Sequence record: PQ724392.1
Direction: 5' to 3' (one strand)
Source: a phage
DNA: 64,000 nt
Shown here: in pieces, positions 3,026-57,162 of the stretch
How the letters are laid out: each line of letters begins with the position of its first letter
Numbering within the stretch: position 1 is the stretch's first letter
Notes under the pieces: generated by a model
What the model was told of the DNA's origin: nothing
What the model saw: the letters and a program-made list of their open reading frames with translations, nothing else
The model's database searches: none
Made by a program: the position numbers and the translations under genes

Positions 3026-3048
3026 GGGACCTTCGGGTCCCTTTTTTA
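3026..3048 (+). terminator. Rho-independent terminator after gp8
   Basis: GGGACCTTCGGGTCCC hairpin followed by a T-run. Confidence 0.7.
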
Positions 3049-41906: not shown

Positions 41907-41929
41907 TAAAAAAGGGCCGAAGCCCTTTT
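41907..41929 (-). terminator. Terminator between alt and gp30
   Basis: GGGCCGAAGCCC hairpin flanked by A- and T-runs. Confidence 0.6.
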
Positions 41930-53252: not shown

Positions 53253-53602
53253 TTGGTGAGCTCCTGGAAGTCCTGGGCGAACTTATCAAAAGACTGATTA
53301 ATCTGTTTTTCAACTAATTTAGGCTTCGCTACCACAACCTTAGTACGTTTTGCATCTGCACGGAGTTTATCATTTTCCTTCTGTAGGAGTTCAACATATT
53401 CCTGACGCTCCTGGTCAAGGAGATTAATTTGATTAATCTGGTCTTTTACTGATTGCAGATTTTTCGCGTTATCTTCTGCAACTTTGGTGACTTCCGCCAC
53501 CGCCGTCTTGAGATTATCTACTTTTGCTTTTAGATAGAAACCACTACCAGCAGTTACTACCAGGGCGAGCATAAGCCCTGCAGTGAGATTACTTATTTGC
53601 AT
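53249..53602 (-). CDS. Inner-membrane spanin (i-spanin, PseT.3-like)
   Basis: 117 aa; N-terminal transmembrane helix followed by charged coiled-coil sequence; paired with the o-spanin as in T4. Confidence 0.7.
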   Translation of the reverse strand: MQISNLTAGLMLALVVTAGSGFYLKAKVDNLKTAVAEVTKVAEDNAKNLQSVKDQINQINLLDQERQEYVELLQKENDKLRADAKRTKVVVAKPKLVEKQINQSFDKFAQDFQELTK

Positions 53603-54096
53603 AACTTGATGATTACCTCAACAATATCATCCTGGGATAAACCATTCAGGAGGATGTGATTTGTACTGTCAGATGCTGAAATGCGGAACTGATTACCAAC
53701 TTCATCCGCCATATCATCCTGGGTTAACACTGGGTGTTTAATCCCCAGGCGGTGTTGAAGTGTCAGGGGTTCAACCACAACATAACAAACACATCCATTG
53801 ATATGTACATTAGGTTGGGTCTGGTTAATGAACACTTCTGCATCATATTTAACCAAATGGTTCTTTAAGAAGTCAACCATTTCAGGAACAGATTCATGCA
53901 GTGCTTCTTTCCGCTCTTCTGATTTTTTATCACGATATTCTTTTTGTTTCGCCTTCAACTTTTTATTGGAGGCGAGTTTTTTCCGCAGGTCAGTCATGAG
54001 ACCAATTTTCTTGGTCCCTTTATAGACATAAATTCCGTCATGACGGTCACCATATTCATTGACAATCATTTCGTTTGAAATCAGTTGCATATCCAT
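53593..54096 (-). CDS. alc: Alc-like protein (candidate host transcription-elongation inhibitor), assigned by synteny and size
   Basis: Internal ATG at 54096 (GAGGAAA Shine-Dalgarno) gives 167 aa, the length of T4 Alc; located between rnlA and the spanins as alc is in T4. Confidence 0.5.
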   Translation of the reverse strand: MDMQLISNEMIVNEYGDRHDGIYVYKGTKKIGLMTDLRKKLASNKKLKAKQKEYRDKKSEERKEALHESVPEMVDFLKNHLVKYDAEVFINQTQPNVHINGCVCYVVVEPLTLQHRLGIKHPVLTQDDMADEVGNQFRISASDSTNHILLNGLSQDDIVEVIIKLCK

Positions 54097-54109
54097 AATA
54101 TTTTCCTCA

Positions 54110-54343
54110 TTAGTAGCGGTTGTAACCTCTAGGGCCAAAAGAGTTGGCACCCAGGCGTTCATCTTTCTTTTTGGCTCTTGCTCTAAACCCAGAATCACTT
54201 GTTTGAGCTTTCAATTCTTTTAACAATTTGGCCTTCAGGTCAGTAATGAAACCAATCCGGCGGTCTCCCTTGTAGACATAGATTCCATCATTTCTGTCAC
54301 CATATGCCTGTGTAACTCTGTCATTTGTAATTAAGTTTAACAT
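54110..54343 (-). CDS. Truncated paralog of the Alc-like N-terminal region (77 aa); PeSL-cassette cargo
   Basis: Shares YGDR(N/H)DGIYVYKG.(R/K).IG(F/L)(I/M)TDL(K/R)(A/K)KL with the N-terminus of the adjacent alc-like gene; internal ATG at 54343 with GAGGA Shine-Dalgarno; preceded by TGTACA-N17-CATAAT. Confidence 0.45.
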   Translation of the reverse strand: MLNLITNDRVTQAYGDRNDGIYVYKGDRRIGFITDLKAKLLKELKAQTSDSGFRARAKKKDERLGANSFGPRGYNRY

Positions 54344-54374
54344 GTTTTGGTCCTCATCAGTAGTTGATGGAACC

Positions 54375-54403
54375 ATTATGTATAGAAAGAAGGGGCTTGT
54401 ACA
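54375..54403 (-). promoter_or_regulatory. PeSL-like early promoter upstream of the Alc-fragment ORF
   Basis: On the - strand: GGGGTGTACAAGCCCC (the -35 TGTACA inside a short GGGG/CCCC stem), N17, CATAAT. Confidence 0.5.
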
Positions 54404-54413
54404 CCCCTTTTTA

Positions 54414-55550
54414 TTATTCAGGAAGGATTACTTCCGCTTGGTAGTCCAACGGAATGTAAAGTTTATGATTTTTAAGGAAAACTTTATTGATTTGAGCAAT
54501 CGTTTGTTCAGTTTCCTGTGGGCGTTGATAGGTGTTCATTAATACGGAGAACAATCCCGGGTACGGTTTACACAACTCTTGACCTTTAATCGCAAACTCG
54601 CGACGGTCTTTTCCTGCCAATTGTTTCTGAGCATCAAGCAACAGTCCAAGAGTGTTGGACAGATAATCCAGATGTGTTGCAGTAAAGGCAGTAACTTTTT
54701 CGCGGGCATAAGTATCACCAGTAAACATGGCAATAACATCATCTGCACCGCCAGCAACAACAACTTCAAACAGTCGCTCATTATTATTAATGGAGTCTTT
54801 GGTATGATGCAGGGCACAATACCATTCTGTTTTCATCTTGAACTTCTGACCACTCGCCAGCTCATAGACGAAACCTTCAATCTCTTTCATATCACGAACA
54901 TTCTCAATGCTCGCCGGGTCATATGCTTCAACCAGGAATGGACGGAGTGCAGCATCTTTGAACAGCTCCTGATAAGGAATATATTCACCAGTTTCATTAT
55001 GGCGAACGTTCAACAAAATCAAGTCACGTTCCTGGTAAGGAAGAACAATGCGATTTGTTGGTGCAACATATTCCATATTGCAAGTATATCCAGCTTCAGT
55101 GATTTCAGTCACACGGGCTCTGAACGCTTCACGATGAGGTTGTTTAAACACCTGCAGAGCTTCAGCAGCTTGTGAGCTTTTGATTGACCCTTTGGATTTA
55201 AACGCGATATTAGTCTGGTCCATATAAGTGGAAACCAAACTACCATCAGCTTTTGCAGTAACCAGGACAACTTCATCAAGGTTAAGACCAATAGTCATTG
55301 GGTTCTCACCCAGATTAAAGAATTTTTCCATTGGACGGGCCGCAATGCGAACTGGACCATTGTCATCCATTTCAAACATAATGCCACGGCACTCCAGCGC
55401 ATCATCAAGGAGCCAATCACTATAGGAAGCATAGTTATAGCTAAAGATGCGGAACTTAGTTTCAAATGGAGAAACAAAATCCGTATAGAAAAACTTACCT
55501 TTATCAGATTCGGCGCAAAGCTTCATTAAGTTATCATATAATTCAATCAT
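54414..55550 (-). CDS. rnlA: RNA ligase 1
   Basis: 378 aa; near-collinear with T4 Rnl1 (FFY.D.VS......RIFSYNYASYSDWLL.DALECRGIMFEMD...PVRIA.RPMEKFFNL). Confidence 0.9.
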   Translation of the reverse strand: MIELYDNLMKLCAESDKGKFFYTDFVSPFETKFRIFSYNYASYSDWLLDDALECRGIMFEMDDNGPVRIAARPMEKFFNLGENPMTIGLNLDEVVLVTAKADGSLVSTYMDQTNIAFKSKGSIKSSQAAEALQVFKQPHREAFRARVTEITEAGYTCNMEYVAPTNRIVLPYQERDLILLNVRHNETGEYIPYQELFKDAALRPFLVEAYDPASIENVRDMKEIEGFVYELASGQKFKMKTEWYCALHHTKDSINNNERLFEVVVAGGADDVIAMFTGDTYAREKVTAFTATHLDYLSNTLGLLLDAQKQLAGKDRREFAIKGQELCKPYPGLFSVLMNTYQRPQETEQTIAQINKVFLKNHKLYIPLDYQAEVILPE

Positions 55551-55957
55551 TTCTTCACCTTATGTTGGTAATTCCACGGGGGATTAAAAAGCTTGATGAA
55601 CATCGGCTCTTCCAGTGACATAGTTTCGACTGACATTGTGCCAAGTTCATTGGTCATTGACAGATTGAAACACTGTCGAGCATAGAATACCACCTTTTTA
55701 CCTTCTTGTAAAGCTTCATGTATCATCCGGGATTTGTTTGAATCACTCGTCTGGTCAATTCGGTTAATTGCAGTCCGGTAATAGTTGATACGCTTCTTAA
55801 GGTTGTTCGTCTTACCAATATACACTAGTTCATCATCAACTGAAATAGCATAGATAACATTTTTCTTGTTCGCGAGAGTAAGGGTAGGGATTGTACCATC
55901 GACTAACTCCAACTCCGCGTATTTTATAAAACTATATTCGTCAGCGATTTGTTTCAT
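55547..55957 (-). CDS. denA: Endonuclease II (GIY-YIG-like)
   Basis: Start at the internal ATG 55957 (the track ORF begins at TTG) gives 136 aa; near-collinear with T4 DenA (EYSFIKY.ELEL...NVIYAI...DELVYIGKT.NL.KRINYYRTAINR). Confidence 0.85.
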   Translation of the reverse strand: MKQIADEYSFIKYAELELVDGTIPTLTLANKKNVIYAISVDDELVYIGKTNNLKKRINYYRTAINRIDQTSDSNKSRMIHEALQEGKKVVFYARQCFNLSMTNELGTMSVETMSLEEPMFIKLFNPPWNYQHKVKK

Positions 55958-55961
55958 AGAC

Positions 55962-55978
55962 AAAAAGGGCCGAAGCCC
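55962..55978 (-). terminator. Terminator between nrdB and denA
   Basis: GGGCCGAAGCCC hairpin with a T-run on the - strand, directly after the nrdB stop. Confidence 0.55.
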
Positions 55979-55983
55979 TTTCC

Positions 55984-57162
55984 TTATAGATATTTACGGA
56001 AACCAGCAAGAACGCTCTCATCAACGTCATTGTCAATCTGGGCTACCAGGTAAGCGGACAACTCGACTTCTTGTGGTGCTGATTGCACGTTATCAGAGTT
56101 AAGATATTCGCGAATCCATGGAATCGGGTGCTTAGTAGATTCTAACACGATTTCACAAGGGAGGCCGCATTGCTTCATACGAGAAACCGTCAGATAATCG
56201 ATGAACCGGTTAAGAATCTCGACGCTCAGACCAGGGAGTCCACCATCTTTAAACAGATGCACGGCCCATTCTTTTTCCTGGCGATTAACTTCCATGAAAA
56301 TGGCTGCGGCTTCTGCTTCACATTCGTGAGCGATTTTAACCCATTCGTCACCGTCAACACCAGTCTGCAGCTGACGAAGAATATATTGGGTCCCCTTAAG
56401 GTGGAGCTGTTCATCACGGGCGATGAACTTCATTATCTTCGCATTGCCTTCCATGATTTCCATGTTCTTATGGAAGTTGAAAGTACAAGCAAAAGATACA
56501 TAAAAACGAATGGCTTCCAGGGCATTAATGACATGCAGGCAGAGATAAAGAGACTTCATCAATGCTCGTTTGGCAATAGCTTCTTGTTTGATAGCCCGTT
56601 CCAAACGTTCATCTGCTTCCGGAGTTTCTTTAGCCAGTTCAACAAAAGCAATCTGGTTTTGCCATTGACGAGTTTTATTCAGAACATCATCATAGTAATG
56701 ACCGATGGATTCTGCGCGCTTCATGATTGCATCATCTAACAGGATTTCGTCGAATACCTTCGCCGGGTCCGTATAGAGATTTCGCATTATGTGCGTATAA
56801 GAACGAGAGTGAATTGTCTCGCTGAATGTCCAAGTCTGAATCCAGGTATCAAGACTCGGGTCAGAAACTAATGCGGCTAATGCTGCTGCAGGAGCACGAC
56901 CCTGGATACTATCCAGAAGCGACTGGTATTTCAGGTTGTTGGTAAAAATATTTTGTTGATGTTCAGGAAGCTTATTAAATTGGGCTCCGTCCATCATCAG
57001 GTTTACTTCCTCTGGACGCCAGAAGAATGATAATTGCTTTTCTGTTAATTCTTCGAAAACTTTATGACGCTGGATATCATAACGGGCAATCCCCAATCCT
57101 GAACCGAAGAACATTGGCTCGGCTAAAACATCCACCGGAGTGGTATTAAAAACTGTACTCAT
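55984..57162 (-). CDS. nrdB: Ribonucleotide reductase small subunit NrdB, uninterrupted (no intron)
   Basis: 392 aa continuous ORF (T4 NrdB 388 aa); position between denA and nrdA. Confidence 0.9.
   Translation of the reverse strand: MSTVFNTTPVDVLAEPMFFGSGLGIARYDIQRHKVFEELTEKQLSFFWRPEEVNLMMDGAQFNKLPEHQQNIFTNNLKYQSLLDSIQGRAPAAALAALVSDPSLDTWIQTWTFSETIHSRSYTHIMRNLYTDPAKVFDEILLDDAIMKRAESIGHYYDDVLNKTRQWQNQIAFVELAKETPEADERLERAIKQEAIAKRALMKSLYLCLHVINALEAIRFYVSFACTFNFHKNMEIMEGNAKIMKFIARDEQLHLKGTQYILRQLQTGVDGDEWVKIAHECEAEAAAIFMEVNRQEKEWAVHLFKDGGLPGLSVEILNRFIDYLTVSRMKQCGLPCEIVLESTKHPIPWIREYLNSDNVQSAPQEVELSAYLVAQIDNDVDESVLAGFRKYL

Follow-up and report, generated by a model that had tools for sequence, protein, structure and literature searches.

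A short paralogue of the Alc N-terminal module precedes alc in T4-like phages of the genus Gaprivervirus

An N-terminal Alc paralogue upstream of alc

Sequence record PQ724392.1 provided 64,000 nucleotides (nt) of phage DNA, the whole of which we refer to as the window. The subject here is a pair of adjacent open reading frames (ORFs) on its minus strand: a 167-amino-acid (aa) ORF, alca, and a 77-aa ORF upstream of it, alcb. A sequence-only reading had described the short ORF as a truncated duplicate of the N-terminus of an Alc-like neighbor, carried on its own promoter cassette. Its coordinates for both ORFs and the two motif strings that it quoted were exact. The observation as a whole was confirmed, but the interpretation was right in part only. 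The phage is T4-like and falls in the SP18/VR7 group of Gaprivervirus; approximately 1.5 kb around alcb matches 34 such genomes with 93 to 99% identity. Gene order at the locus is that of T4, with all genes on the minus strand (Table 1).

The 167-aa neighbor is indeed Alc. It matches the Pfam family ALC (PF17527) from end to end (E = 6.5e-49, 166.4 bits, profile positions 1 to 176 of 177), and it is 55% identical to the Alc protein of phage T6 over 166 aa without a gap (E = 1e-69). It also lies between rnlA and pseT.3, as alc does in the Tevenvirinae. By these measures, alca is an orthologue of the alc/unf gene of T4 and its relatives. When alcb was aligned with alca by BLASTP, 31 of 64 positions were identical, with 69% positives (E = 4e-17). 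The alignment covers alcb residues 2 to 63, so the similarity extends well past the 27-residue block on which the original comparison was based. alcb also passes the PF17527 threshold (41.1 bits against a cutoff of 25), but it matches only profile positions 3 to 62 of 177. It is 53% identical to the N-terminus of T6 Alc (E = 1e-18). alcb is therefore a truncated paralogue of the Alc N-terminus. It has a dedicated family, PHROG 17715 (77 positions); Alc is PHROG 1253. PADLOC and NCBIfam scans returned zero matches.

We modeled Alc with AlphaFold, using 21 Alc sequences. The model (predicted local distance difference test score [pLDDT], 92) has a helix at residues 8 to 15, a β-hairpin at 23 to 33, an unbroken helix from 34 to 80, and a C-terminal α/β domain at 87 to 166. 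Residues 37 to 67 of the long helix are approximately 65% charged. From the sequence and the model, we read it as a single helix exposed to solvent, which keeps the ends of the protein apart, rather than as a coiled coil. We found no sequence relatives of Alc in the PDB, and a literature search for an Alc structure returned nothing relevant. The ~60 N-terminal residues that alcb has in common with Alc of the T4 type include every invariant residue of the Alc N-module (I, G, D-G-I, and G), and alcb also has the nearly invariant D-L. AlphaFold predicted the N-module of alcb with confidence (pLDDT of ~90 for residues 11 to 40) and the tail with low confidence. On the alignments, codons 47 to 63 of alcb are the remodeled counterpart of the charged Alc helix, and the Gly/Ser-rich residues 47 to 52 should end the helix. 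The alcb product would then be a free-standing Alc N-module, made up of the short helix, the β-hairpin, and about 14 residues of the long helix. The charged spacer helix of Alc (47 residues) and its C-terminal domain would be missing, replaced by a basic, flexible segment and by a conserved motif at the C-terminus that Alc does not have. The complete Alc architecture (N-module, long helix, and C-terminal α/β domain, ~165 aa) is present in alca and not in alcb. alcb is an Alc-N paralogue, not an Alc, and transcription termination by alcb cannot be assumed from this kinship.

The pair is already present in public annotation, as alca and alcb of Shigella phage SP18 and, for alcb, as ORF243c of VR7 (VR7ORF243c). 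SP18 alcb (YP_003934864), VR7ORF243c, and PHROG 17715 are the same gene as alcb of the window (94 to 100% amino acid identity), with no sequence difference to set it apart. The SP18 record for alcb holds a similarity note only ("similar to N-terminal region of ... Alc"). Literature searches on alcb, VR7, or Gaprivervirus Alc returned nothing relevant on the selection, distribution, origin, or regulation of alcb.

Table 1. Features at and around the alcb-alca locus (positions are those of the window)
Feature	Position	Strand	Basis
alcb, 77 codons plus stop	54110–54343	−	ORF list, BLASTP, Pfam, PHROG, 13-genome comparison
alca (alc), full-length 167-aa Alc	53593–54096	−	Pfam, T6 Alc alignment, family alignment, AlphaFold
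alcb codons 1–46, copy of the Alc N-module (short helix, β-hairpin, start of long helix)	54206–54343	−	Alignment and AlphaFold
alcb codons 47–63, Gly/Ser break with invariant GF, then basic stretch	54155–54205	−	Alignments
alcb codons 64–77, conserved tail LGANSFGPRGYNRY, motif G[AR]NSFGP...N[KR][FY]-COOH	54113–54154	−	Codon comparison
Stem-loop AAGGGG-TGTACAAG-CCCCTT, terminator-like, −35 within the loop	54390–54409	−	Sequence pattern and folding
Early-promoter-like site: −35 TGTACA (54398–54403), 17-nt spacer, −10 CATAAT (54375–54380)	54375–54403	−	Pattern, position
5′ untranslated region (5′UTR) hairpin GGUUCCAUCA/UGAUGAGGACC, pairing the alcb Shine-Dalgarno sequence (SD) GAGGA (54351–54355)	54349–54374	−	Folding
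Degenerate second 5′UTR/SD block GGTTACAACCGCTACTAATGAGGA	54104–54127	−	19/24 identical to GGTTCCATCAACTACTGATGAGGA at 54351–54374
rnlA (RNA ligase 1), gene upstream of alcb	54414–55550	−	ORF list and orthologue annotation
denA	55547–55963	−	Gene list
nrdB	55984–57162	−	Gene list

Downstream of alca, also on the minus strand, are the spanin genes pseT.3 and pseT.2. The match between the window and phage DCP80 (L012; 140,978 bp) stops just beyond the end of alca. DCP80 has unrelated small ORFs in place of pseT.3 and pseT.2, and its genome is approximately 30 kb shorter than those of its relatives.

Selection on alcb and its distribution

To examine selection, the window locus was compared with 12 further Gaprivervirus genomes. 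alcb is uninterrupted and exactly 77 codons long in all 13. Its mean ratio of nonsynonymous to synonymous polymorphism (pN/pS) is 0.12, equal to that of alca, and 13 of its 19 variable codons vary only synonymously. Within the tail (codons 64 to 77), all six variable codons are synonymous, including an arginine switch between AGA and CGG (pS = 0.30, pN = 0). The chance of six synonymous and no nonsynonymous tail changes under neutrality is roughly (10.9/42)^6, or ~3e-4. We also considered RNA structure as the reason for tail conservation and rejected it. A hairpin in the GANSFGP codons is broken by the synonymous changes, with zero covariation.

The same gene is found beyond the genus. A search with Alc found two metagenomic Alc proteins that are 75 to 77% identical to alca, and three contigs (L020, L021, and L022) have a 77- or 78-codon ALC-domain ORF between rnlA and alc. 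These sister-lineage alcb genes have ~50% amino acid identity to alcb of the window, and their synonymous sites are saturated. Kept across this divergence are the length, the N-module core, the invariant GF, and the tail G[AR]NSFGP...N[KR][FY]-stop, which L020 and L022 write with different codons. Checking related genomes for the fragment therefore yielded an intact ORF in 13 genomes and 77- or 78-aa orthologues in the sister lineages. Judged by this retention across divergence, alcb is plainly a functional protein-coding gene under purifying selection. The suggestion that it is a decaying pseudogene, a nonfunctional remnant of a partial duplication, could draw on the loss of two-thirds of Alc, the faster evolution of alcb than of alca, and a frameshifted 75-aa version on one metagenomic (ENA) contig, P0002, but it is very improbable because the low pN/pS, the purely synonymous tail changes, the ORF length, and a motif that has outlasted synonymous saturation all refute it.

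The P0002 variant is identical for 55 residues, after which a deletion shifts the frame and the ORF continues into the start of alca. This is either a knockout that arose in nature or a mistake in the assembly.

In five genomes, a TAA lies in frame just 5′ of ATG 54343. Therefore, the alcb start is fixed at that ATG, and an 88-aa version starting at ATG 54376, which is annotated in DK-13 (L004), is ruled out. Longer versions of alca were also rejected. A 201-aa form with a GTG start and a 189-aa form (in the L002, L003, and L012 records) overlap alcb and do not fit the family alignments. Several public records thus carry wrong start codons for alca and alcb.

In the next Alc lineages out (P0007, P0008, and P0020; ≤63% identity), rnlA is followed directly by alc, without alcb. 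Approximately 800 phage records have an Alc match. Only ~36 have two, and among the matches listed, all of these are Gaprivervirus. HMMER found just two alcb clusters in 1.84 billion representative proteins. Beyond the three lineages described, no more were found in that set, in a 5.8-billion word index, in IMG/VR, in a metagenome contig collection, or by tblastn with sister-lineage alcb. alcb is an invention of one narrow clade.

The upstream spacer and the origin of the duplicate

The spacer between rnlA and alcb is 70 nt long. It opens with an A-rich stretch that contains the rnlA stop codon, followed by the stem-loop with the −35, the −10, a second hairpin with the SD, and the ATG. An A-tract lies upstream of the early-promoter-like site. 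The alcb SD, which had been predicted, is a GAGGA located 7 nt from the ATG. Directly after the −10 comes the 5′ arm of the second hairpin. Folding of the two-hairpin spacer gave −23.8 kcal/mol (z = −4.2), which none of 200 shuffled sequences equaled. In 7 of 8 other lineages, hairpins that differ in sequence take up this place. Taken alone, the promoter pattern does not exceed chance, with 10 sites in the region against 7.7 expected. The credibility of the site comes instead from its position and conservation. By position, it is the orthologue of the GTTTACA...TAnnAT promoter of alc in other genera, and the 50-nt bin that holds most of it (54350 to 54399) is the most conserved in the region, with one variable site among 12 genomes.

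The corresponding spacers of seven phages from six genera (JS98, T6, RB69, Kosakonia 305, IME523, MHG19, and STP4-a) were used as outgroups. All seven, and both sister lineages, have a 56- to 68-nt spacer between rnlA and alc or alcb with a GTTTACA-type −35 and a −10. Because a promoter occupies the same position in all outgroups and sister lineages, the spacer reads as the ancestral alc early promoter, which alcb is predicted to have inherited. Eight of these nine spacers also have a strong hairpin. In seven (L013 to L016, L019, L020, and L022), the hairpins differ in sequence, yet each pairs the SD with nucleotides within the promoter or adjoining it (z between −2.8 and −5.6). The hairpin of MHG19 (L018) does not quite reach the SD, and no such hairpin is present in RB69. 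The pattern suggests that translation of alc from read-through transcripts is gated in a conserved way. Since the 5′ arm begins at the −10, we infer that the SD is free in transcripts from the proximal promoter and paired in those that read through from rnlA. The e, soc, and I-TevI genes of T4 have such a design, in which a hairpin hides the SD when transcription reads through but not when it starts at a proximal promoter. The 5′ arm of the alcb hairpin likewise begins at or inside the promoter; the alcb case is built from sequence and folding only.

The upstream spacer also bears on the proposal that alcb was captured by a mobile regulatory cassette. Promoter early stem-loops (PeSLs) of T4-type phages combine a stop codon that lies in A-rich sequence with a stem-loop, a σ70-like early promoter, an SD, and an ATG (Arbiol 2010, PMC2839356), and in one subclass the stem-loop is over the −35 (PMC2839356; Comeau 2014, PMC4122927). 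The alcb spacer has this composite layout, from the stop in the A-rich stretch through GGGG..CCCC over the −35 and the 17-nt spacing to the SD and ATG. One of its neighbors, moreover, is a gene that some related phages have and others lack. The label "PeSL-type promoter" is therefore fair. However, PeSLs form a repeated family, whereas the alcb spacer is a single instance in the window, at a conserved, core-like junction. A search of the 64-kb window, which is only part of the genome, for a second copy of the cassette returned only the query at ≤2 mismatches, and two matches with 3 mismatches were partial. Because the spacer is the ancestral alc promoter by position, no mobility is needed to explain it, and capture by a mobile cassette is unsupported.

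Elsewhere in the window, the GGG..CCC hairpins belong to composites of a terminator and a late promoter (TATAAATA). They are at 3026 and 9622 on the plus strand and at 41925 and 39453 on the minus strand. Their TATAAATA box directly follows the GGG...CCC hairpin, unlike in the alcb element. The stem-loop at 54390 to 54409 is palindromic, and read on the plus strand it ends in TTTTTATTATT, a better T-run than that on the gene strand. From this, it may stop antisense (late-direction) transcription as well.

The junction between the two genes is tight. The alcb stop codon, TAA (54110 to 54112), directly abuts the alca SD, GAGGA (54104 to 54108), and in every lineage the alcb stop is on or next to the alca SD, with a gap of 10 to 13 nt. 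A pattern scan and folding revealed no promoter-like site or SD-masking hairpin just 5′ of alca. Since alca has no promoter of its own and alcb stops at its SD, the two genes are read as a bicistron, and they are probably translationally coupled. A +1 frameshift that would fuse alcb to alca was rejected. Upstream of alca, its frame stays open for 38 codons in the window and for just 7 in L022.

The junction also preserves a trace of how the pair may have arisen. The start codons of alcb and alca are 247 nt apart. The 24-nt block that is repeated at 54104 to 54127 ends 7 nt before each ATG, so that homology between the copies reaches 31 nt upstream of both starts. In the window lineage, its alignment score was reached by 3 to 6 of 5,000 shuffles. 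The second block carries the alca SD and encodes the last five codons and stop of alcb. In the alcb frame, it reads G-Y-N-R-Y-stop, and the first block reads G-S-I-N-Y-stop. Therefore, the end of alcb looks like a translated copy of the alc 5′UTR. Further upstream in the tail, NSFGP plausibly aligns with a clade-specific ESVP at Alc residues 66 to 69. The best account of the origin is likely to be a tandem duplication of ~247 bp, comprising the alc 5′UTR and the first ~70 codons. The sequence-only reading had also favored a partial tandem duplication, and the homology upstream of both starts agrees with it. The duplication would have occurred in the common ancestor of Gaprivervirus and its two uncultured sister lineages. 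The upstream copy would have kept the ancestral alc early promoter and SD-masking hairpin, and its reading frame, continuing into the duplicated 5′UTR, would have met a stop there after 77 codons. Downstream, the other copy would have remained a complete alc without a promoter of its own, leaving the alcb-alca bicistron.

Several observations weigh against this reconstruction or blur it. Homology of the 5′UTR block is not significant in L020 or L022, where only the SD is common to both copies. Nor is the promoter region significantly homologous to the DNA that encodes the alcb tail (1,634 of 5,000 shuffles), so the left edge of the duplication is uncertain, and duplication of the entire promoter was accordingly downgraded to uncertain. 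The 45 N-module positions do not resolve the tree, with alcb of the window 58% identical to T6 Alc and 51% identical to its own alca. Also, alcb has evolved approximately three times faster than alca (nonsynonymous divergence [dN] of 0.48 to 0.61 versus 0.15 to 0.20). Tandem Repeats Finder, run on 53500 to 54600, reported zero repeats at this divergence of the copies. Recent gene conversion between alcb and alca was rejected, given their 62 to 66% nucleotide identity and identical runs of ≤16 nt.

The alca N-module itself (codons 2 to 45; 53962 to 54093, minus strand) occurs in two haplotypes approximately 20% apart among the 13 genomes, which are otherwise 93 to 99% identical. The allele in the window matches alc of Kanagawavirus phage IME523 over 65 nt at 89%, with an identical run of 32 nt. 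This points to exchange of the Alc N-module alone between genera.

A different origin, and the one closest to the earlier cassette idea, is that alcb derives from a foreign alc gene, whose 5′ end, with the promoter, recombined in at the PeSL-type spacer. PeSLs have been proposed as recombination sites (PMC2839356), alc N-modules are exchanged between phages, as the Kanagawavirus match illustrates, and in the window, alcb resembles T6 Alc as closely as it does its own alca. Even so, we find a foreign 5′ end distinctly doubtful. The promoter is at its ancestral position, and the two copies share 5′UTR homology. DGIYVYKG is in both copies in all three lineages (with one variant each), though also in some outgroups, and the S-V/F-(G)-P trait reads as clade specific. 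Furthermore, a search of the 1.84 billion representative proteins revealed no donor lineage.

A possible role for alcb in Alc-dependent shutoff

To our knowledge, how Alc arrests RNA polymerase solely on DNA that contains cytosine has lacked an explanation since 1993, and no structure of Alc is available. Alc terminates RNA polymerase on deoxycytidine (dC)-containing DNA by a mechanism that is unknown, and this depends on dispensable region I of rpoB, in which mutations abolish Alc action (PMC2988021). Because of these mutations, the simplest model is that the N-module acts on RNA polymerase. The Alc N-module would dock on a partner, most likely host RNA polymerase at β dispensable region I. 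alcb would occupy or share the N-module site and so tune or extend Alc-dependent shutoff of host transcription, and its tail would supply a separate contact. The role of alcb is likely that of a stand-alone N-module that is coexpressed with Alc and has the same partner, probably host RNA polymerase. The earlier idea of a small modulator that may compete with full-length Alc is a reasonable one. Microproteins, which are truncated-paralogue regulators that compete with or titrate their parent, offer a parallel. Like them, alcb has kept one domain, has lost the effector parts, and is probably coexpressed with its parent. It differs in having a newly gained conserved motif of its own, which suggests that alcb does more than simple titration. 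As a whole, the explanation that alcb is a functional small early gene, derived by tandem duplication, whose N-module acts on the partner of Alc is in our judgment probably correct, with a fair amount of room for doubt.

alcb might instead partner with Alc itself, for example by pairing of N-modules via hairpins or helices, and form a hetero-oligomer or act as a dominant negative without binding RNA polymerase. Truncated paralogues often act in this way, one mRNA would serve both proteins, and the same module is in both. However, alcb variants do not covary with the two alca N-module haplotypes, and the highly charged Alc helix reads as exposed rather than as a dimerizing coiled coil, although neither is a strong argument. 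Because of the missing covariation, a shared third partner is slightly favored, and pairing with Alc seems somewhat unlikely.

A further possibility concerns DNA chemistry. According to two comparative studies, Gaprivervirus phages keep alc, denB, and dCTPase (gene 56), and they are without the dCMP hydroxymethylase gene 42 and known base-modification enzymes (PMC8056088, PMC12115623). In SP18 (L029, 17000 to 36000), no gene 42 or glucosyltransferase is annotated in the uvsX-imm interval, where T4 has them. Cultured phages with alcb are Gaprivervirus only. Given the lack of a known base modification, the only cultured genus with alcb is therefore also one whose escape from its own Alc is unexplained. 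alcb could be an adaptation of Alc shutoff to unusual DNA chemistry, either resetting how or where Alc tells phage DNA from host DNA or protecting phage transcription from Alc. If so, it would be a free N-module with a new tail that binds nucleic acid or polymerase. The association of alcb with the absence of gene 42 is a correlation from one clade, and we regard such an adaptation as quite unlikely.

Finally, alcb might be only a translated leader, with ribosomes that terminate on the alca SD delivering or gating alca translation and with a functionless peptide. The stop codon overlaps or abuts the alca SD at the same short distance in every lineage, and alca has neither a promoter nor an SD-masking hairpin of its own. 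However, a pure leader needs nothing but an open frame, yet the residues of the N-module fold and the tail motif are under purifying selection across deep divergence. A leader alone has only a slim chance of being right. Coupling and a functional peptide may well coexist.

In the account that we prefer, the locus would be a clean, small example of the birth of a new gene, by partial tandem duplication, extension of the frame into a former 5′UTR, and fixation of a new C-terminal motif. Furthermore, since selection has kept a natural stand-alone copy of the N-module, the function of this module should be separable from the rest of Alc, and alcb offers an experimental handle on the Alc puzzle.

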